17,745 nt of DNA from Phycisphaerales bacterium (GTDB taxonomy: Bacteria; Planctomycetota; Phycisphaerae; WQYP01), in contig DAIDJN010000067.1 of assembly GCA_027451365.1 (NCBI GenBank), positions 1-17,745 on the forward strand. The letters run 5' to 3'. The position numbers were made by a program, and so were the translations under genes. Below are positions 6,473-17,745 of this stretch, in pieces. The notes below the pieces were generated by a model. It saw only the letters and a list, made by a program, of their open reading frames with translations, was not told the origin of the DNA and made no database searches. Position 1 is the first letter of the stretch. Each line of letters begins with the position of its first letter.

Positions 6473-7492
6473 TTATCTGGATTTGGCCCGGCTCTTCTTG
6501 GCTGCGGATATTTTTTTAGCCTTTGATTTCGCCGGCTTTTTTGCCGCCTTGGCCGCCGTCTTTTTCACAACGCGTTTAACGGCCCTGGCCTTGCTGACCG
6601 GCTTGCGCGCCGTTTTGGCTTTTCCCTTACCGGCCGAACGCACCGGCTTTAGCGATTTGGCGACCTTGGCGGCTTTGCCGCCACCGGCGGTCTTGCGGAC
6701 CTTGGTCAGTGCGCCGCCTTTTTTCCGCACAGGCTTTGGTACCGCCTTCTTTGCGGCGTTGCCTGGCGTTTTGGCCTGCAGCGCCCGTTGCGGCTTCTTT
6801 TTTGGCGGCTTTCCGGACGCCTTTGAAACCAGTGCTTTCTTCGGACGATCCGCGCCAACATGCGCGGCACTCTCCTGAACTTCGATGACTTCAATCGCTT
6901 CCGCCCCGGCCACAAATGCCTCGGCAGCGGATTCCTCTTCAACAGTATCCGCGAAATCATTGGGCGGGGAAATTTCCTCAATGGCGGCGGAATCTGGCGA
7001 AACAGTCTGATCTGATTTTTCTTCCCAGAATTCGAAGGAATACGACAACTGTTCCTGAACATTGGCCAGCGCGCTGTCGGTCATGTCGGTCTGTGGCTGC
7101 AATTCAGCCGTTGGCAATTCAGGCTGATTGGGATCGCGCCATTGAATTTTCGGGCAATCGCCCCACAGCAGTTCAAGGTCGTAATACTGACGGCTGGCTT
7201 CGTCAAAAACGTGCAGCACCACATCCACAAAATCAACAAGTATCCATTTGGCGGATTCATAGCCGCTGGTGCGCCATGGCTTAAACCCGAGCGCTTCACC
7301 CGCGCGGCAAAGTTCATCCGCCACGGTGCGCATCTGGCGCGCGGACGTACCGGTACCGATTAAAAAGAATTTGGTTACTGGCGACCGCTGGCGTACATCC
7401 AGAAGCACCACGTTGCCGCAGCGCGTTTCGGCTGCGAGTCTGGCCAATGAAATTGCCGCGCTTAAGGCCGGGTCATGATTTGCTTCTTCCAT
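6473..7492 (-). CDS. rsfS: Ribosome silencing factor RsfS (Iojap/YbeB) with a long acidic plus Lys/Ala-rich C-terminal extension
   Basis: Residues ~10-120: FFLIGTGTSARQM, WILVDFVDVVLHVF, RQYYDLELLWGD. AGGTGG SD. The frame stays open ~220 aa further and stops 9 nt before argS. Confidence 0.92.
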   Translation of the reverse strand: MEEANHDPALSAAISLARLAAETRCGNVVLLDVRQRSPVTKFFLIGTGTSARQMRTVADELCRAGEALGFKPWRTSGYESAKWILVDFVDVVLHVFDEASRQYYDLELLWGDCPKIQWRDPNQPELPTAELQPQTDMTDSALANVQEQLSYSFEFWEEKSDQTVSPDSAAIEEISPPNDFADTVEEESAAEAFVAGAEAIEVIEVQESAAHVGADRPKKALVSKASGKPPKKKPQRALQAKTPGNAAKKAVPKPVRKKGGALTKVRKTAGGGKAAKVAKSLKPVRSAGKGKAKTARKPVSKARAVKRVVKKTAAKAAKKPAKSKAKKISAAKKSRAKSR

Positions 7493-7924
7493 GGTACGGT
7501 TCCACCTGTCAAAAATCCGGGCAGAACTGTCCGGGGGAATTCGGTGTCACCCACAGGCAACCTGCCATCGGCATACAGTTTCGCCGAAACCGCTCTCCGA
7601 TGCCAGCACACGGGAAAAAAAATCGGACAGTTTTTGTTGAAAATCGCGTTCGGTGCCTTTCGCCCGCCAACCCTGCGTCGGCCAGCCGCAGAATTCACCG
7701 CTCATTGGATCCGCCATTTATCGCCAGGTGTCAGGGACCCTTTGCAATCAAAATAGCGGCAGGCTTCAGCCTGTCCAAAAAAATCCATAAACGCGGAAAA
7801 CAGGATTTGGCATTGGCAATAAAATATTGTAAACTTCTTTTTCCGGGCTACTTTGGGCCGGTCGGCAAAGCCGATAAGCCCTGTATTCGGAGAATATTAG
7901 CAGGCATTCCGGTGCGTTGCATTT

Positions 7925-8124: not shown

Positions 8125-9378
8125 ATGACAGCAAAGCACGGTCGTACGCACCTGTTTACAAGCGAATCGGTTTCCATGGGCCACCCGGATAAGGTTGCGG
8201 ATCAGATTTCCGATGCCGTTCTGGATTCACTGCTGGCAGTGGACCCGCACGCCCGTGTGGCCTGCGAAACACTGGTTACCACTGGTCTTGTGGTACTGGC
8301 CGGTGAAGTAACCGTGCACAACAGCAAAGCCATTGAAGCGTTGAACAATGCCGAAGACACGGCTCGCAAAACCATTGCGGAAATTGGTTATGACGACCCG
8401 CTTACCGGTTTTGACTATCGCAGTTGCGCAGTAATGCGTTCGCTCCACAGCCAGTCCGCGGATATTTCCCGCGGCGTAACTGAATCCGCCCAACATGAAC
8501 AAGGTGCGGGGGACCAGGGCATTATGTTCGGATTTGCCTGTACGGAAACGGCATCCCTTATGCCACTGCCGATTTATTTAAGCCACCGACTGGTTGAAAA
8601 GCATGCCGAACTGCGGCAGAACAAATCCATCCGCTGGCTCCGACCAGACGCCAAAAGTCAGGTGACCGTGGAATATCGAGGCCGACGACCGGTAAAAATT
8701 CATACCGTCGTGTTTTCCACCCAGCATACCGAGGAAGCGGTTGACACCCGATCTGACAGCTTTGCCGATGCGGCTCGCATGGAAATTATTGAAAAAATCG
8801 TCAAGCCGGTCATCATGGCGGAATGCCCGGAATTGTGGAACGAAAAGACCATTTTCCACATTAATCCGACCGGAAAATTCCTTATAGGCGGTCCTCATGG
8901 CGACTCCGGCCTGACTGGCCGCAAGATTATTGTGGACACCTACGGCGGTCGGGGGTGTCATGGCGGCGGCGCATTTTCCGGCAAGGACCCGTCCAAGGTG
9001 GATCGTTCAGCCAGCTATATGGCCCGCTATGTGGCAAAAAATGTGGTCGCAGCCGGCCTGGCAACAGCGTGCGAAGTGCAGCTTGGCTATGCCATTGGCG
9101 TAGCCGAACCGGTCAGCGTTCTGGTGGATACCGAAGGCACCAGCGTGGTGGATGAAGATATCATCAGCGATCTGGTGCGAAAGGTATTCCCTCTGAAGCC
9201 ACGGGGAATTATTGAGCATCTCAAATTGCTGCGGCCGATTTATCGCCAAACCGCCCGCCATGGTCACTTTGGACGCGAATTGCCTGATTTTACATGGGAA
9301 AAGACTGACAAAGCCGCCGAATTAGCAGATTTGGCCGGCGTTAAACCGAACGAACAGGCCGTCGGCGCGGCCACCTGA
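8125..9378 (+). CDS. metK: S-adenosylmethionine synthetase
   Basis: [64 protein letters not shown]. Confidence 0.99.
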
Positions 9379-9737
9379 CCCGGCATGTACCCAACGACAA
9401 ATAAAAGCGCAATTGAAATCAATATATTTTCTTTTGCCAATAGGGTGCGTGACACGTTTCGCTGTTGAAATTTGCTGTATGGAATACAGATAATCCGCCA
9501 TGGTAGGCAGGTCGCTATAATGTCCGGCATATTCCCGCCGGCGAAGCGTATGTGGAATTGATTTTCATGAATTGGCGGCACTTTTGATGTGGCTGGTGAG
9601 GCACTGGCCAGCAGGCTGAAATTCGGCGACGGATTAGGAGTTTGCGGCAGCTTGTTGGTTGAGTGGGAAATAAAATCTCCGTGGAACCACTTAGACCAAT
9701 TTTTGCATCGCCTTTTTCCTGGCATTCCGTTGGGGTG

Positions 9738-9888
9738 GCAGGCCAAAACACCTTGGGCGTCGGGCGTCTCGCGTGAAAAGAAGCCGCTGGGGGCCGCGTT
9801 CACCGCCCAGGACGCTGGATACCGCATAACCGCAAGCCATTGATCATCACCACGAAACAAAGGCGCACCGAAATAATCCAATCCACAG
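9738..9888. repeat. ~150-bp direct repeat, copy A (REP-doublet-like)
   Basis: Matches 10076-10239 with 20 mismatches in 151 aligned nt plus one 13-nt indel (hand count). Confidence 0.92.
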
Positions 9889-9908
9889 ATTCCACAGATT
9901 CCACAGAT
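9882..9908 (+). repeat. Perfect tandem repeat (TCCACAGAT)x3
   Basis: Read directly from the sequence. Confidence 0.95.
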
Positions 9909-10075
9909 TTTGCTTCCACAAGCAAATTGGCGGGAGTTCTATTTTTTCTGATCATAGATCGTTGTTAGTTGTAAAAGACCACAGCGGACGCGGATAAACT
10001 GCCACACCAGTATACGCCACCAATATCCCGTCAGAAGGCACGGAATCAGCAGCTAAATTCAGTGAAACCCATGCC

Positions 10076-10239
10076 GCAGGCCAAAACACCTTGGGAAATC
10101 ACTTTGGGGGTCGGGCGTCTCACCCGAAAAGAAACAGCGAGGGGCCGTGTTTTTCGCCCAAGACGCTGGGTAACGCATAACCGGAAGCCATTGATCATCA
10201 CCACGAAACAAAGACGCACCGGAATAAACCTATCCACAG
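10076..10239. repeat. ~150-bp direct repeat, copy B, abutting the IS4 remnant
   Basis: Paralog of 9738-9888. The extra AAATCACTTTGGG imperfectly duplicates the preceding AAACACCTTGGG. Contains the hairpin TCGGGCG-TCT-CACCCGA. Confidence 0.92.
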
Positions 10240-10240
10240 T

Positions 10241-10631
10241 AACCTACGACTCTCACGATGGATGATAGAAACGAACATTCGCCACCTTAAAATCACACTG
10301 GGCATGGATGTACTCAAGTGCAAGACCCTTGATGGGGTGCGTAAGGAAAGGCTGATATTTCTACTGGTATACAACCCTATCCGCATCATCATGCTGCAGG
10401 CGGCGCGACGGCAGGGTGTCAACATCAATCGTCTGAGCTTTGCTGATACCCTCGCATGGATACGCCATGGCGATCTGCATCGTTGTCCCCCCTTAATAGT
10501 CAACCCTCTACGTCCCGGCCGATTGGGACCGCGTGTACTCAAACGCCCCAAAAAAGCAGTTTCCCTATATGACCAAACCACGGGCCGTACTCAAAGCAGA
10601 ACTTTATGAAAAATATGGCGATTTGGCTTAA
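10241..10631 (+). pseudogene. IS4-family DDE transposase, 3' remnant, frameshifted
   Basis: RWMIETNIRHLK fits the IS4 (Y)-x2-R-x3-E-x6-K motif, followed by GMDVLKCKT and RPGRLGPRVLKR. After a frameshift near 10546-10556 another frame reads KQFPYMTKPRAVLKAELYEKYGDLA* to TAA 10629-10631. The N-terminal part is absent. Confidence 0.88.
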
Positions 10632-10644
10632 CTTAGTGGCATTA
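10627..10644. mobile_element. Right terminal inverted repeat of the IS4-family remnant
   Basis: The reverse complement TAATGCCACTAAGTTAAG resembles the IS4 end as I recall it (TAATGCC...AGTTAAG), and it overlaps the transposase stop. No left IR seen. Confidence 0.75.
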
Positions 10645-10646
10645 GG

Positions 10647-11966
10647 CTACGGCCCCGTTTCGCTCTCCCTAACATCTAACTCCTCACTGCCGCCTTTTCG
10701 TGCCCCCAAGTCGCCAACCATCCCCGCGCGGAAGGTCTCCGCCAGCAACAGCAATCCCAGGTAGCCCATCGGAACCAGGGCCGCCGAGCCGCCGGTTATT
10801 GCCGCATGCACCAGTCCATTTTGCATCAGTTGGTAGCCCGCCCAAAACGGCAGCAGCAGGAAAAACAGTCCGCTGCAGAATGTCGCCAGCAATGCAGCGG
10901 TAATTGCCCATGCCAGCCCCGGAGGAAGGCCCGAAAGGCCAAGGGGCCGGATGCGGGCGATTTTACCGGGCCCGCCCGCTAAAATTCCAGGCATTTGGGC
11001 ACTCGCGAAAATTAGTCGCATGGTCCAGGTGCCCAGCCATCCAATCAATCCAATTGCCAGCGACCAATACCCCAATTGCGTTGCTCTTGCCGCCCAGAAT
11101 AACCCGCTTGGTATCCAGATGACACCCTTGGACTCTACCGCTTCGCGATAGCAGTTTCCGGCGTGGCCTTCCGGCGGCAGCAATGGGGCGAGTTGTATCC
11201 ATTTGGGAAGATGCGGTGCAACAACCCGGAGGTGGACTGAGTTGCCTGCGGTGATAACCTCCGACTGTCCTCCTCCTGCACCGATGCCTCCGATCGGCAA
11301 TGGGCCGGCCAATACCCGTTGCATCTGGCCCGGATTCCACACCCGATGCAAATTCGTCGAAATGAAGGGCAAAGATGCCCCCGCCCACAGAAAGGATAAC
11401 GAATAAACGATGGTCAGCATTGTAACGCCAACAAAACTAATCACCCCGATTTCCATGAAAGCGGGTTGCGACTGCAATTGCCATGGCATTAGCCAGACTT
11501 CCGTACCCGATTGCGGGTCGGGACGCGCCAATTCGTCTATGGCGCGGCTGGCTCCCGCCTGTGCTGGCGTCGCATTTGAACCGGATTGGGGACCAGTTGG
11601 CCAAGCGCATAATATATTTTGCCAGACAAGCATGCTGCCCGACAACAAAATTCCCCACCCCAAAAGGCACGCGCCTGAGGCCGCAGGGACCGGGTCAGCC
11701 ACCAGCGTGGCGGCTGATAGCAAAGCTCCGGCAAGGGCAATGCCAATACCAATACGAAAGACCGGCGGTGCCAGCACCCTTATCCACCGACGGCAACGGT
11801 CTACCCATCTGTCAGATATGAATCGAACGCGGCCGAATGCGAACAGTCCGAGTATCGCCAGCATGGCGAGCAGTTTGCCCGCAGCCGAAAGCCCCGCAGC
11901 CCAAAGCCAGAGGATGTCACCGGCTGTCGGCTGCCCCGCGTTATTTAACATGTTGAGCAATAGCAT
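10647..11966 (-). CDS. Polytopic membrane protein, candidate immunity protein for the 12013-12750 RHS module
   Basis: 439-aa ORF with about 8 hydrophobic segments, starting 46 nt after the RHS-CT stop on the same strand. No family recognised. Confidence 0.65.
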   Translation of the reverse strand: MLLLNMLNNAGQPTAGDILWLWAAGLSAAGKLLAMLAILGLFAFGRVRFISDRWVDRCRRWIRVLAPPVFRIGIGIALAGALLSAATLVADPVPAASGACLLGWGILLSGSMLVWQNILCAWPTGPQSGSNATPAQAGASRAIDELARPDPQSGTEVWLMPWQLQSQPAFMEIGVISFVGVTMLTIVYSLSFLWAGASLPFISTNLHRVWNPGQMQRVLAGPLPIGGIGAGGGQSEVITAGNSVHLRVVAPHLPKWIQLAPLLPPEGHAGNCYREAVESKGVIWIPSGLFWAARATQLGYWSLAIGLIGWLGTWTMRLIFASAQMPGILAGGPGKIARIRPLGLSGLPPGLAWAITAALLATFCSGLFFLLLPFWAGYQLMQNGLVHAAITGGSAALVPMGYLGLLLLAETFRAGMVGDLGARKGGSEELDVRESETGP

Positions 11967-12012
11967 TTATTGTCCAACAAAATCCGAACGATGGCGAGCA
12001 CGCGCACGCCCC

Positions 12013-12750
12013 TCAGAACGGGTTGGGCCAACTGTGTTCGTAAATCTTCGCTGGCGCATTTATCCCTGGACCTGGCGGGACCGGGATCTCGAACCTTTTT
12101 GTCCACCATAAGAAGGAAGCTTCCCCTACCATCCAAAAATCGAATTCCCCCGCCAATTCAAATGTAATGCTGCTCGGATCAGCCTTAAAAAAAATATCGA
12201 AAGCCCCGCCAGCCCTCCCGGTCGCCTCAATGCTGAACCCAAGAAGCCCCACGCCGAAGCTGAGGCCGGCCGAAAGCCTGAGTTTCGATTCGACATAGCC
12301 AGAATTCAAGGGGCCGCCGCACTTTCCATTATGCAGATCAAGTATCAAGGACCTTCCCAATTGGGGCCCGACTGTGGCATCAGCCTCAATCTTCTCCCCG
12401 AAAAGCTCAAACTCCAAGCCAATTCCGGTACCGACATGCATATCCGCTGTGAGCCTCAGATACTCTCGTTTCCGCTCGATTTTTCTCTTGTAGCGGACCG
12501 ATATTTTAAATCCGAAGCCTTCGTAGACGGCAAATTTCGCAAGGGTCCCCTCGACCGTTAAGGCGCCCCAAGGGTCAACTCCTCCTGCTGGCATCCCCCC
12601 CACATACCCATACAAATTAATCCCGCCGGCATACCCAATCGGATCACGCTGAATCCAACGGCCAAGGACGGCGTTGTATGTCCGATTGCGGACGTAACAA
12701 CGCTGCGTTTCGGGATCAAAGCGGTAGCCGCAATAAATAATTTCATTCGC
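12013..12750 (-). pseudogene. Orphan RHS core end plus ~183-aa beta-rich C-terminal domain (module 3)
   Basis: ANEIIYCGYRFDPETQRCYVRNRTYNAVLGRWIQRDPIGYAGGINLYGYV..P...VDPWG. RHS similarity stops where the 170-bp repeat begins; no native start. Confidence 0.9.
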
Positions 12751-12920
12751 ACAGGAGGTATTGGAGAAATTGGGTGTATCGCGGTGGCGACGGGCAGACA
12801 AGATGTCTGCGGTCCGGTGACCAGGAGATTTTCCGGTCTGCCAAGACTCATTGCGCCAGCGGACGCTGCTTCGCGGCTTGGTGCCGTGGTGGTGAACAAA
12901 TTGTTTATCAAGTGCGACCA
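12750..12920. repeat. Dispersed ~170-bp repeat, copy B, at the 5' breakpoint of RHS module 3
   Basis: About 92% identical to 110-280, same orientation. Confidence 0.95.
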
Positions 12921-13033
12921 AGATAATTGCTCCGCAGACAAATGAGCTTGATGGAATTCTATTCGGCTGATGGCAAAGTGTGCAAATCTCCGGTGGCCTG
13001 ATCCGTCTGGTCCACAACATTTGACAATGGCTT

Positions 13034-13308
13034 GCGGAAGAATGCCGTCACTTCGTCATCCGTCCGCGGCCAAACCACAAAATGCCAATGATTCTTCATC
13101 AGCAACCAGGCCAATATCCGCAGCGGTATGCGGTGGTATGCGGCGGTATGCGTTCCTGAGCCTCTTATCCCGGCGCGCCGGGACTCAAAAGCGGCATCAT
13201 CATCATCTTCATTACGAACTCATTACGAAACAGGGCGATTCGTCCCGCGGAACAATTGAGTGCGTGGTAAATTTAGCCACCCGGCGTATGTCTTGCTTTG
13301 CGTGCCCT
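13034..13308 (-). pseudogene. RAYT / IS200-like Y1 HUH transposase, N-terminal remnant
   Basis: Reading across frameshifts gives (AGG)ARKARHTPGG*IYHALNCSAGRIALFRNEDDDDAAFE..EAQERIPLRILAWLLMKNHWHFVVWPRTDDEVTAFFR. This includes the YHxxN motif and the HUH motif MxNHWH. The half carrying the catalytic Tyr is missing. Confidence 0.88.
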
Positions 13309-13315
13309 ACGCCGC

Positions 13316-13344
13316 ACACTGTCCGCAATCCGGCCATCTGTCAA
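13316..13344 (-). promoter_or_regulatory. Putative sigma70 promoter of the RAYT remnant (TTGACA-N17-CAGTGT)
   Basis: Perfect -35, 17-nt spacer and weak -10, ending 7 nt before the former start codon, which fits a leaderless transcript. Confidence 0.45.
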
Positions 13345-13422
13345 TATTAGCTACGTACCCGTTTTTCTCTCCAGGCAACCGCCCGCTCGAAGGCCGGTTC
13401 GGCCGACATCCACGCAGCATCC

Positions 13423-13707
13423 TCATCTGTTCGCGCCCCCAACGAAAGCGCGACCATCCCCCTCCCTTTGCATACCGCCGTGGGGATATGCGGGCTGACT
13501 GCTATCGGATTGCCTCGGCCCGCTCCGGGATATTTGCAAAGACAGGGCCGTCTCCTGTCCAACCCAAAAAGCGACCAATAAAAAAATCGACGCGAAGACA
13601 AATGCGGAAGTGTACAGAACCCACCAGTTTTTCTTCGGAGTCAAAAAAGCAATCACTAATAGGAAAAATGGTCCTAAGACAAGAATACTAGGCAATATCA
13701 TCACCAT
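13423..13707 (-). CDS. Small two-TM membrane protein, candidate immunity paralog 2
   Basis: GAGGGG SD before ATG 13707; overlaps the upstream ORF's stop; two hydrophobic helices. The C-terminal third may be junction read-through. Confidence 0.55.
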   Translation of the reverse strand: MVMILPSILVLGPFFLLVIAFLTPKKNWWVLYTSAFVFASIFLLVAFWVGQETALSLQISRSGPRQSDSSQPAYPHGGMQREGDGRAFVGGANR

Positions 13708-13997
13708 AAGAGCCCCTCACCAGTTGGCCTCGTCTGATCGCCTCGGAACAGATCGTGCGGCGGTGGCGCCCGGGCCGCCATAGTCGCGGCCGACCGTTGC
13801 CCTTGTCGGTGTAAAAATGACCGCCGATCAATGTCGACTGATCGCTCAATTAACCATAGGCAGCAAAAAAGCCAAATTGCCCAAGAAACAGCGACGGCGG
13901 CCACCCTATGCCTGGGAAATATCCAAGCAATTAATATTATCACCGGCGGTCCCGCCAGCAAGCCCATGAATGTCATGACCTGGTTGTCCATAATCAC
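13701..13997 (-). CDS. Small two-TM membrane protein, candidate cognate immunity of RHS module 2
   Basis: GTGA overlap with the RHS stop (alternative ATG 13991); two hydrophobic helices, then a hydrophilic tail that may not be native. Confidence 0.55.
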   Translation of the reverse strand: MIMDNQVMTFMGLLAGPPVIILIAWIFPRHRVAAVAVSWAIWLFCCLWLIERSVDIDRRSFLHRQGQRSAATMAARAPPPHDLFRGDQTRPTGEGLLW

Positions 13998-16048
13998 CGC
14001 CCCGCCAGCCCGCCGGCCAGCTTTGCGCCGGCGCTTCCCGATTGGACTCGCTGGTAATCCAAATAAAGGTGTGGGTGCGGCCCCGGCCCCCTAGCCATGG
14101 CGACCCCGGAGTATATAACGTTAATTGCCCACTCGGCGCAATTGCTGAGGCCTGCATTGTAGTAGGGCGGACTCGCCTTCGCCGCTGCAGCCAATTTTGC
14201 AATCTCGGCAGCTGCTTTTTTCACGTCAACCTCGCAGCCATCGACGTAAACTGCATATTTCCGCAAGAAGTAATCGCTATGTAATGTAAGGGCGTTGGCG
14301 TAACCAATCGGCAAGAGGGAATAGGAGTCATTCGTGTGCACCACACCCGGCGTCAGCCAGAAGGTATCTTTGAATACCGCCCAAGTCGTCCCGCTCCCAG
14401 CTACCGGAAAAAATCCGTAATACACCCCGCCAACCTCGATAAAGGCATGCACAAACGTTGCCCGGGGAGATGCGGTGGCATAAGCCTTGTAGTAGTAGAC
14501 TCCCGGTATCTTAGCTTCCTTCAGCCCGCTCGGATCTACCATCCCCACCGGCCCGCTTCCCACAAACTGATACGTATTGGCCCCATTGACGTAAGAAAGC
14601 GGATCCTGCGAAATCCAAGTTCCCAGCGACGGCGAATAATTCCGGAAGCGTTCGTCATACAGCCCGGTCACCGCATCCAGCGTCATGCCTTGATACAGAT
14701 TGTTCACCATTGGCCGCGTGCCGGCAGGTGGCGTGCTCCAATCCGCATTCAATACGGTGATCGAACCATAAGGCGAATAGACGTAGCGTTGCACGACATC
14801 CCATGTTCCGGTGGTGCTGTTGAATCCAACAACCGCTGTGGTATCCCAATTCGCATCCTGCAGGAAGTACAGTCTGCTGTTCGGCTGAATAACGCCAGCG
14901 GAATAGGTGTCCTGCAATACCGCCGCGTTAATGTATGCGGCACTCAAGACCATTTGCGATGACACATTTGAGGATGCCGTGCCATTGGTGCGGGTTTCAA
15001 TGGCCTGCCAGTTGGAATTGTAATAGATGTAGTTAATCTCACCGGCAGGAATGCCGGTGCCACCTTGCGGATAGCTTTCGCTGATACGGTATCCGCGTGC
15101 ATCATACGTATAGGCCGCAATCAGTTGCCCTGCGGAATTGGTCACGCTCACAAGCCGATTCCAGGCATCATAAACCAGTTTGTTGCCGTTCTGATCGGTG
15201 GTCATGTTGCCATTGGAATCATATACAGGAGTCAGGAGACCGGAGACAGAAGTAATTTGGTTTTGTGCGTTGGCGGTGCGGGTCTGCGTCGTGCCATTCG
15301 TCGTGCTGCTGGACCAATTCCCCTGGCTATCCAGATTCCAGCTTTGATATGCCGCTCCGCCACGGGTTACCGCGGTTAATCTGTCCAGCAGATCATAGCT
15401 GTATGTTTCCGAATAGGCGGAATTCAGCACATTGTTTTTCGCAGTGACATTGGAATTCTGGTCATAGGTATAGGTGTATCCATCCACAGTTGTTCCTGCG
15501 GAATTCACCCAGTTCTGATTGACGACCCGACCGAATTGGTCAAGACCGACATATTGGTCGCCACCGGCACCAATGGAACCGGAGGCTCCAACCAAGGTCA
15601 GGTTAATGCCCGTCTGCGGATGATTACGGGCCACAATGGTTGAAAGGCCAAGATAACTGTACTGTTCAAGAACCTGGCCGGGATCGCCGGAATTTGCGCC
15701 ATCGCTGATGGAATCCAATCGACCAATTGCCGCGTCAAGCGCCCCGTTCAGGTTGGAACCTGAATAGTTGTAATCAATCGTTCTGCCGTTCGGATAGACC
15801 ATGCTGGTAAGCAAGCTCCCATTCGAGGGACTCGAATAGGTATATCCTACATAAGGCGTGGTGCTGGTGTCCACCGCACCGCTGACACTCTGGTATTGCG
15901 CGGTAATCTGCCCCAGGCCATTGTAGAAATTCTCCACCTGATTCACGATCGTTGTACCAGCCGTATCCGCGCGAAAGCCGCGCACACGGCGGAGTTTTTT
16001 CTTATGCCGCCGGGCGATCATGGTCGAATTTTCACAACTCATCGCCAT
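13994..16048 (-). CDS. 5'-truncated RHS/YD-repeat protein with a ~175-aa putative permuted papain-like C-terminal toxin (module 2)
   Basis: YD repeats (YTYDQNSN, YSYDLLDRL, YDAWNRL, YTYDARG), RYVYSPYG, core YQGMTLDAVTGLY..R.YSPSLGTWISQDP, and PVGMVDPSGL. RHS similarity starts at ~15970; the first 26 aa are unrelated. Confidence 0.9.
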   Translation of the reverse strand: MAMSCENSTMIARRHKKKLRRVRGFRADTAGTTIVNQVENFYNGLGQITAQYQSVSGAVDTSTTPYVGYTYSSPSNGSLLTSMVYPNGRTIDYNYSGSNLNGALDAAIGRLDSISDGANSGDPGQVLEQYSYLGLSTIVARNHPQTGINLTLVGASGSIGAGGDQYVGLDQFGRVVNQNWVNSAGTTVDGYTYTYDQNSNVTAKNNVLNSAYSETYSYDLLDRLTAVTRGGAAYQSWNLDSQGNWSSSTTNGTTQTRTANAQNQITSVSGLLTPVYDSNGNMTTDQNGNKLVYDAWNRLVSVTNSAGQLIAAYTYDARGYRISESYPQGGTGIPAGEINYIYYNSNWQAIETRTNGTASSNVSSQMVLSAAYINAAVLQDTYSAGVIQPNSRLYFLQDANWDTTAVVGFNSTTGTWDVVQRYVYSPYGSITVLNADWSTPPAGTRPMVNNLYQGMTLDAVTGLYDERFRNYSPSLGTWISQDPLSYVNGANTYQFVGSGPVGMVDPSGLKEAKIPGVYYYKAYATASPRATFVHAFIEVGGVYYGFFPVAGSGTTWAVFKDTFWLTPGVVHTNDSYSLLPIGYANALTLHSDYFLRKYAVYVDGCEVDVKKAAAEIAKLAAAAKASPPYYNAGLSNCAEWAINVIYSGVAMARGPGPHPHLYLDYQRVQSGSAGAKLAGGLAGR

Positions 16049-16115
16049 AATTGCGTGTCATTCGGCTATTTGCCAACTGTTTGATCGTCCCTTATCATGA
16101 AATTTAAGGCTCCTT

Positions 16116-16505
16116 TCAATTGAGTGGGCCACCGCACGACTCTCTTGTCGCCCCGGACTCTATCAATTTAATTATAAACTCATCGGGATTATCCGGCGAG
16201 ATGATGATATAGCGAGAGAAACCGCTCCTCTTGCGAATAAATACGAATTCACGCACAAATAACCGATTTACCATCGTTGAGTATCTGAAAAAATCGGGGC
16301 TGGTAATGAGGTCGCGATGGGTCATCTTCTTAACGGTCGCATCACAAAGGGGGATTGCGCAAACCGGTAGCAGGCCGAAGAGGACCACCCGAAGGTGCGA
16401 CGGCGTTATCTGGTAGGTTAAAACCACTTGCATGAAGAAATGGGCGCCTACACCACAGATAGCGAGGCTCGCGAGAATTTCAACTAAAGTGAAAAGAAGA
16501 TGCAT
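16116..16505 (-). CDS. Membrane-anchored protein, possibly with a bacterial PH-like domain; candidate immunity of RHS module 1
   Basis: N-terminal hydrophobic helix from ATG 16505, beta-rich body, and C-terminal IIISPDNPDEFI resembling bacterial PH-domain ends. Lies directly downstream of the RHS-CT. Confidence 0.6.
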   Translation of the reverse strand: MHLLFTLVEILASLAICGVGAHFFMQVVLTYQITPSHLRVVLFGLLPVCAIPLCDATVKKMTHRDLITSPDFFRYSTMVNRLFVREFVFIRKRSGFSRYIIISPDNPDEFIIKLIESGATRESCGGPLN

Positions 16506-16617
16506 TTTCTTGCTGCCCGCTTGCCAATCACGCCGATAACCGACCGATGCCACATCCGGTCTCGTTCCTACTAGGCCGAAGATTCCGGGCCTTCAGCCCG
16601 GCCCTATCTCTCGCACG

Positions 16618-17589
16618 TCAGGGCGGCACCACTTGCAGATTGCCATTCACATCCGTGACGTAGCCTGGCGGGTTTGCAAAAATATTGATCGGCCTAGTGC
16701 CCGCCGAAACCGTCGTCGTAGGAAAGCCTGAAACGGCAGCGCCAGCGCCGCGTCCAGCCGTCAGGCTACATATCCAAATGCCGTGGCTAATGGCAAAGGA
16801 GACTGAGCCAAAAGGAGTGTCCAGATTCCATTGCTTGAACGGTCCGTTCAGCGCGGAAACGCGACCCGCGTTTGTCATAAAGATCCCGCCCCCAACTCCC
16901 GCATAACGCCCTCCAAAGAAATCGGTCTGTCCCGTGTTTGAAGGAAAACCGACCGTGTGGCCGGGCGTACCAAAAGCTGCGCCGCCGGAAAGAAAGCCTC
17001 CACCGCTTATCCCGTTATGACCAATAAATACGCCGGCGCCCCCTGCCGCGGTTGCCCCGCCGCCAGCGACTACTCCGGCCGTTGCGCCCCCGGTACCGAT
17101 AGCTCCGACGCCAAATAAGCCCCGCGGATCCACCATCCCCACCGGACCGCTTTCCACATACCCATACAAATTTACCCCGCCCGCATACCCAATCGGATCG
17201 CGTTGAATCCAACGGCCAAGCACCGGGCTATACGTCCGATTGCGGACGTAATAAAGCTGCGTTTCAGAATCAAAGCGATAGCCGCAGTAGATTATTTCAT
17301 TGGCACCATAATCTGACTGCACATCATCATCGGTAAACCAGATGCCATCCGCACCCGGGCCGGTGAAGATCAGCGTATTGCCATACGCATCTGTATCATA
17401 CGCCTCCACAACCTGCCCGCTGGAGTTAACAAGCGCCACCGCGCGGTACAGCAAATCCTGCAAAAGATAATAACTTCCAGCCGCCAGATTCTGGGCACCA
17501 AGCGGAACCAAAGTCGTCAATTGAATACACTCGTCAATATATTGGCCCCATACATATTGCCGAATCGGAGCATCCGTATTGCCGCTGCC
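16618..17589 (-). pseudogene. Orphan RHS core plus ~165-aa glycine-rich C-terminal domain (module 1)
   Basis: RQYVWGQYIDE, VEAYDTDAYG, YCGYRFDSETQLYYVRNRTYSPVLGRWIQRDP, PVGMVDPRGL. The open frame upstream (to 17724) is not RHS-like. Confidence 0.88.
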
Positions 17590-17607
17590 CCGGCGGCCGC
17601 AACTAAC

Positions 17608-17634
17608 ACTTTGTGTCCTCTGTGATCTCTGTGG
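17608..17634 (-). repeat. Degenerate 9-mer triplet CCACAGAGA TCACAGAGG ACACAAAGT
   Basis: Read directly; lies just upstream of where RHS similarity of module 1 begins. Confidence 0.7.
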
Positions 17635-17745
17635 TTCGACCGTCCCGCCAAACCCATACGCATATCGCCCGCCCGGCCACGGGGGACCAATCGCGTTTTC
17701 TATGCTATCCGCATTCCTGACCATTTTATGGCCCCGTTTGAACCA

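Follow-up and report, generated by a model that had tools for sequence, protein, structure and literature searches.

TIRtrons were described in 2013 as a Y1/HUH transposase gene, the TIRYT, that lies between terminal inverted repeats (TIRs) and not between hairpins of repetitive extragenic palindromes (REPs) (Di Nocera et al.; PMC3733652), and Quentin et al. (2018; PMC6006769) equate TIRYT with subclass 2.1 of TnpA-Y1. In orphan rhs-CT/immunity arrays the RHS cores lack their 5' part, carry tails that vary and are followed by a small gene, and the tails are exchanged at the core (Koskiniemi et al., 2014; PMC3967940). While TIRtrons and orphan RHS arrays are already known, the link between both is the new part of this report on a window (the whole stretch of DNA that was analysed) of 17,745 nucleotides from a Phycisphaerales bacterium, contig C67 of a 4.06-Mb assembly that is 93% complete.

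The window holds an island after a gene at 8125-9378 that we take to be metK, composed of three RHS modules on the minus strand, a dead Y1/HUH gene and an IS4 remnant. A first-pass annotation had read this island as orphan toxin-immunity cassettes bounded by a short motif that also flanks a dead transposase gene of the RAYT type, and had suggested that such an enzyme may capture or shuffle the cassettes. Like the TIRtrons, the transposase family in question has a Y1/HUH gene of ~230 aa between terminal inverted repeats in place of REP hairpins, a GGGGAC core and dispersed solo and paired TIR copies; unlike them, its core reads GGGGACG(C/T)AGCTAG, one base off the published GGGGWSAS (PMC3733652), and the local copy is a wreck. 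The TIR consensus GGGGACGC matches GGGGWSAS at 7 of 8 positions. Judged by its length (~230 aa against a median of 238 aa) and the absence of REPs, the family is probably TnpA-Y1 subclass 2.1 (PMC6006769). A REPtron, that is a RAYT with GT[AG]G REPs, was rejected: a single site folds with only -2 to -5 kcal/mol and NF047646 stays below its cut-off, a stem being formed by the paired mini-element only and not by a single TIR.

The orphan arrays of Koskiniemi et al. (PMC3967940) resemble the modules here in all the features named above, but here 41 cores are spread over ~25 contigs instead of forming one array behind a main gene, a transposon end lies at some seams, and toxicity and immunity are predicted. 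A recombination enzyme that builds immunity arrays has been proposed for XerC/D-linked polyimmunity loci, where XerC/D are the only recombinases named in the accessible text (Zhang et al., 2012; PMC3482391); in contrast to these, the enzyme here is an HUH single-strand nuclease and not a tyrosine recombinase, and whole core-tail-immunity modules are concerned, not immunity genes alone. The word 'rhs' has 0 occurrences in the accessible text of either PMC3733652 or PMC6006769, and base-exact joints to foreign genes are not described there; the literature searched holds no link between TIRtrons or RAYTs and RHS, with the proviso that the supplements and figures of both papers may list neighbour genes. 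A Stenotrophomonas preprint makes no mention of a transposase.

Results

Identity of the motif: a TIRtron end

The longest uninterrupted reading frame left in the dead gene served as query against genome contigs; 186 stretches encode a relative, and the best 80 of them gave 77 homologue loci; the nearest homologues are from Planctomycetota, mostly Phycisphaerae. When up to 3 mismatches are allowed, the 15-base motif core is found immediately 5' of the gene in 32/75 homologues and, as an inverted copy, immediately 3' of it in 23/71, against 0/63 and 0/62 in the respective controls 2 kb away, and both copies are present in 17/69 loci. The motif is therefore the TIR of a TIRYT/TIRtron, a Y1-HUH transposase unit; conservation beside intact homologues was a test set beforehand in the first-pass annotation, and it is found. 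Two-ended elements are 750-960 bp long, and none of the 17 examined shows a target duplication (3.2 nt against 3.3 nt in shuffles). The homologues show NHWH and YVERN motifs (PF01797, 9.7e-09), the nearest of them, L032, having His in place of the catalytic Tyr. Their left TIR carries a -35 box, and among the matches listed other homologues show variant TIRs. (Here and below, G denotes genomes, with G000 the own genome, L homologue or metagenome loci, and C contigs of the own genome.) The TIR core equals the apparent 5' end of what is presumably a tRNA-Ala gene (L260, L263, G000 C58:113070), so pattern searches return false positives.

Within the window, all five motif strings listed by the first-pass annotation are present where it had placed them, and its central pair, 13350-13372 and 10646-10668, is identical at 19/23 positions in the same orientation. 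Its caution about chance was well placed, as 1.7 such pairs are expected in 17.7 kb and a pair picked post hoc is weak. A matrix built from 55 sites that flank homologous transposases gives these two sites 27.2 and 21.8 bits, the next-best site of the window 3.3 bits, and finds 8 sites of at least 21 bits in the own genome against 1 in the reversed genome. The three looser sites could not be upheld as copies, with -11.4 bits for 17727-17739, -12.0 for 9442-9463 and -13.6 for 7726-7743. The first of these is no module border either, because it sits within an RHS leader that recurs in the genome, at a distance of 327 nt from the core in 8 copies, with shared sequence continuing on both sides; as it matches the 10646 copy at 12/13 bases, it may be a decayed TIR. 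The 9442 site is a member of a different repeat.

The features that carry this identification are:

13339..13372, minus strand: left TIR of the TIRtron, outer end at 13372; 27.2 bits; homology to the C11 copy begins at the TIR
13031..13308, minus strand: dead 5' third of the TIRYT (Y1/HUH) gene; HUH motif retained, frameshifted
10646..10668, minus strand: second TIR copy; 21.8 bits; inner side cut by an IS4 end
10181..10644, plus strand: what is left of the 3' part of an IS4-family element, its end directly against the TIR; NF033592 2.4e-07, PF01609 8.5e-05

The gene is dead, as had been stated: its start codon is lost, stops and frameshifts interrupt it, and only model positions 1-79 of 229 are left, without the catalytic Tyr. 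The window copy has the left TIR only, the 3' TIR being missing, and contig C11 carries a likewise broken copy that is 87% identical. A C-terminal tail guessed from an alignment was discarded, as the stretch is leader DNA common to G001, a genome of the same genus. The motif had been placed directly upstream of the transposase promoter; a TTGACA -35 box is indeed found at 13339-13344, in the inner part of the TIR, but without a callable -10 a full promoter was not called. The outer end at 13372 lies 50 nt behind the last small open reading frame (ORF) of module 2.

In the G059 loci L233-L245 and in L069, several tandem copies of the TIR's outer half are common, and 60-bp inverted TIR pairs form mini-elements. 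The tandem outer halves may record repeated cutting at the end.

TIR joints in the window and its genome

The remaining features of the island are:

16116..17724, minus strand: module 1, an RHS core (17119-17400) with its tail, followed by a 145-aa ORF; neither end has a TIR
13994..16057, minus strand: module 2, 5'-truncated RHS with core 14525-14785 and a 176-aa tail; 5' end not at a TIR
13423..13997, minus strand: a pair of small hydrophobic ORFs that follow module 2, labelled immunity only by their position
12778..13031, minus strand: repeated leader, type B, which precedes many truncated RHS cores in the own genome and G001
12013..12777, minus strand: module 3, RHS core 12565-12774 with a 183-aa tail; TIGR03696 8.6e-17, no Pfam match
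10647..11966, minus strand: hydrophobic ORF of 439 aa that follows module 3, labelled immunity only by its position
9738..10239, strand unassigned: tandem repeat with a ~350-bp unit, also at more than 10 other places of the genome

Modules 2 and 3 end at a TIR, as proposed, but module 1 does not. At module 3 the joint runs into the coding sequence: the TIR at 10668 supplies the last 7 codons and the stop of the 439-aa ORF, with its outer end at codon 433. The only other homologue of this ORF, P0002 (67%), aligns to residue 432, the last aligned residues being weak, and continues for 20 residues, which suggests that the TIR replaces the last 20 codons seen there. For the gene at the TIR on C57, a search for the same kind of truncation found no homologue.

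Seven of the eight TIRs in the own genome, all pointing one way, have their outer ends at -217 to +22 nt from the stop of a gene that follows an RHS or RHS-like tail. Six TIRs are no more than 2 kb from an RHS core, and the DNA within 5 kb of a core makes up 5.6% of the genome. One of the seven, on C65, follows an RHS-like tail with no core on that contig, and the eighth, on C52, follows an unrelated gene. The outer DNA differs at every locus. Inward of the TIR, the start of a transposase follows in three copies and one truncated IS4 block in four, and homology between copies starts no more than 3 nt from the outer end in the four IS4-type copies and the two that share a broken transposase. 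The latter two, on C11 and in the window, have the broken transposase, leader and RHS core in common over 776 bp at 87%, but differ outside the TIR on one flank and past the core on the opposite flank; C11's unit is without a second TIR. A matrix search recognised no right TIR in the own genome.

The 41 RHS cores of the own genome are nearly all short 5'-truncated frames; full-length genes may be lost at contig ends. The RHS part of the toxin-immunity claim is confirmed by profile, and the truncated cores with variable tails that mark orphan RHS modules are present, but the toxin and immunity labels follow from position. None of 27 RHS tails of the genome reaches the Pfam cut-off, and among 26 genes next to such tails one is a barstar by Pfam, the ORFs of the window having no such match.

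Two or three conserved leaders (window 17400-17745, 105-437 and 12778-13031) precede most of the 41 dispersed cores. Several leaders share the same start and an open frame, and leader-RHS frames could encode short expressed RHS proteins and not be silent orphans. A second repeated end motif opens many of the shared blocks behind RHS modules (C39, C54, C56, C62, C63, C65, C68) and interrupts the transposase start on C65; it is possibly another element end. The ~350-bp tandem unit, up to four or five copies in a row, has no Rfam match and no homologue in the fetched loci.

TIRs and RHS modules in other genomes

Is the proximity of TIRs and RHS modules particular to one genome? RHS cores are present in 6 of the 77 homologue loci against 0.76 expected (the six include a broken frame of 67 aa); of 76 metagenome loci that contain an exact TIR, 4 have a core against 0.28 expected, the expectations being derived from 313 cores in 315 Mb of 50 of the 59 host genomes; models and thresholds differ between observed and expected counts, and kin are not independent. 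A further 48 short metagenome TIR loci (26.5 kb), outside the 4/76 count, hold no RHS. Transposase and RHS are co-oriented in 9/9 loci, compared with 17/29 for ordinary neighbours by a rough gene caller, and a general rule of TIRtrons following co-oriented genes was dismissed at only 17/29 and 12/23. In five test genomes, 7 of 54 TIR clusters (0.9 expected) and 8 of 95 Y1 genes (1.4 expected) lie within 3 kb of an RHS core, as do 6 of 105 IS4 genes (1.5 expected). Enrichment of the motif near RHS modules, another test set beforehand, is thus observed, often at base-exact seams; what is not supported is that it is special to this element, the IS4 control not being distinguishable.

L042 mirrors the layout of the window, with a small gene, a TIR and a transposase start fused in frame to an RHS piece. 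G059 is a complete chromosome with ten RHS regions; in six of them there are TIRs, as whole elements, as inverted pairs of 60 bp or as left ends standing alone. RHS coding DNA begins within 12 nt of the right TIR in four of eight junctions tested (L058, L233, L235, L237); of the rest, one stands at 69 nt, one was assigned a variant TIR by eye and no RHS was seen in two. In L236 an RHS piece ends at the left TIR. For the cut pieces of L235 and L236 there are paralogues, 89-93% identical, whose sequence extends past the point of the joint; the half that was lost does not lie on the opposite side of it.

IS4 insertion at the TIR and exchange of tails

In five genomes an element of the IS4 family inserts at a fixed base of the TIR, by either end. 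Its end is found at the same TIR base at five loci of the own genome (window 10644-10646, C16, C39, C57, C85) and in four other genomes (L043, L302, L304/L311, L305), and the insertion has removed the -35 box in four or five own TIR copies. The nearest precedent is ISRm22, a member of the IS4 family that also inserts at one fixed position, in a repeat associated with Y1 genes (Tobes and Pareja, 2006; PMC1525189); here the target is the TIR and not a palindromic REP, which would be a new specificity, akin to REP targeting, for TIRtron ends. A second short repeat, to which window 9442-9456 belongs, has 15 matches in the genome and 8 in the reversed genome. It is directly followed by an IS4-like end in 11 of the 15, the window copy being empty and at the island's edge.

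Public contigs join the tail of module 2 to another RHS core at 14569-14572, in 4/4 runs of one study. This one observed swap breaks at the RHS core, so the first-pass idea of swaps running from motif to motif is not supported, and among 15 joints listed of 27 none runs from TIR to TIR. Homologous recombination at the core is the route shown for RHS tails in Salmonella (PMC3967940).

Discussion

How did the outer end of one TIR come to abut so many different sequences? The motif is a TIRtron end, and we give roughly even chances to a reading in which its outer end was joined to new DNA by the Y1/HUH enzyme, making some of the RHS seams, with tail swaps likely left to homologous recombination at the core. 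From HUH chemistry we infer that the enzyme nicks and joins at the TIR. An intact TIRYT, present earlier or acting in trans, would nick single-stranded DNA at the outer end and join it without target duplication. A lone left end would thereby move to another site together with its inner-side cargo (a dead transposase, IS4 debris, a leader or an RHS core), or alternatively two TIR copies would be exchanged; by either route the flanks of an element would stem from different sources. Within RHS arrays, the gap from an immunity gene to the truncated RHS that follows is where most of the surviving products would be found, pointing downstream, and there a TIR with its debris block would form repeated DNA behind a cassette and, together with the RHS core, offer two crossover points for ordinary recombination. 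The TIRtron end is likely one of several seam makers and not the border of every cassette. Single-strand HUH chemistry operates in IS200/IS605 and IS91; these and the one-ended transposition of IS91/ISCR share with the joints here the lack of a target duplication and one fixed end with variable cargo. They differ in that inverted repeats are present here, and neither an ori/ter pair nor a subterminal hairpin was found.

Several observations weigh against this reading. Only 6 of the 41 cores have a TIR within 2 kb, so the proposal that the motif bounds cassettes in general is not supported, and the eight own-genome copies are not independent of each other. No intact TIRYT was found in the own assembly, at its 93% completeness. 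The four IS4-type joints could be the work of the IS4 transposase, since that element targets the TIR. The eight junctions in other genomes were picked after a first look; enrichment of TIRs and of Y1 genes near RHS is not distinguishable from that of IS4 (Fisher p 0.13 and 0.58), and the TIR signal comes from G059 (5/16) and G041 (2/9) only, with none in three test genomes. Neither transposase nor RHS accompanies 60 of the 76 metagenome TIR loci, many of which are short.

Such points lend some weight, although clearly less than we give to TIRYT-made seams, to a scenario of passive debris, in which whole TIRtrons inserted once, survived in neutral RHS gaps and decayed, the Y1 enzyme being inactive beyond the first insertions and the blocks being spread by recombination and the TIR-targeting IS4. 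The 35 cores without a TIR, the tail of module 2 on another core in all four runs, for which a homologous route exists (PMC3967940), the recurrence of IS4 ends at one TIR base in five own loci and four other genomes, and an IS4 enrichment near RHS not distinguishable from that of TIR and Y1, with 5 of 7 IS4 hits pointing the RHS way, all suit it. Yet it needs seven separate one-way insertions just behind immunity-position genes when no right TIR is recognised, copies that share one broken transposase or IS4 block differ outside the TIR end, and flanks of single elements come from different sources. We consider it doubtful that the TIRs serve as recombination sites of a dedicated integron-like system, in which TIRYT in trans would excise TIR-to-TIR circles (such as 10668-13372) and stack cassettes at a TIR. 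Two direct TIRs do bracket module 3, TIRs lie at successive seams in L042, L235 and L237, and G059 holds TIRs in six of its ten RHS regions, but most cassettes lack a border site (a TIR is within 2 kb of 6/41 cores), the assembly has no intact enzyme, tail swaps occur at the RHS core, the unit of C11 has no second TIR, no TIR-to-TIR joint is among the 15 listed of 27, three of five test genomes have no TIR near RHS, and the site is often broken by IS4. In five close relatives, too, most TIRs and RHS cores are on different contigs, which weighs against a dedicated system. Very improbable, finally, is that left TIRs were retained because their promoter drives orphan immunity genes, with position and orientation reflecting selection and not targeting; the -35 box in the left TIR of homologues and the predominance of left-type, downstream-pointing solo TIRs near RHS would agree with this, but the window copy has no callable -10, IS4 removed the -35 box in four or five copies, and the base-exact joints are left unexplained.

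What remains of the proposal that an HUH transposase captures or shuffles cassettes is that some seams are likely TIRtron-made; an integron-like system is unproven. Homologous recombination explains core swaps and not the new seams by which orphan modules first join RHS arrays; base-exact TIR-RHS joints bear on how that first joining comes about and on what TIRYT enzymes do. Since such joints exist along with intact enzymes and sites (for example L233), both are testable in one assay. A bolder proposal, which we regard as unlikely, is that TIRYTs are the missing recombinases of polymorphic-toxin arrays in Planctomycetes, an HUH nuclease acting in trans with an att-like short end to capture and stack RHS modules. 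If true, TIRtrons would gain a first known role, and new orphan cassettes could arise without homology.

Setting of the window

The island is not found at the corresponding place in G001, where a ribosomal protein gene directly follows metK; because synteny is broken there, the window locus has no filled/empty strain pair. Part of the stretch is present in four runs, all from one mine-drainage study, and no RNA run is among those listed as containing part of it. Positions 1-434 are another leader and RHS start, of which 99 identical bases overlap contig C63, and the right end overlaps contig C82 by 141 bases. At 6473-7492 lies what is presumably an RsfS-like gene, with a long C-terminal extension that is first acidic and then rich in Lys and Ala.

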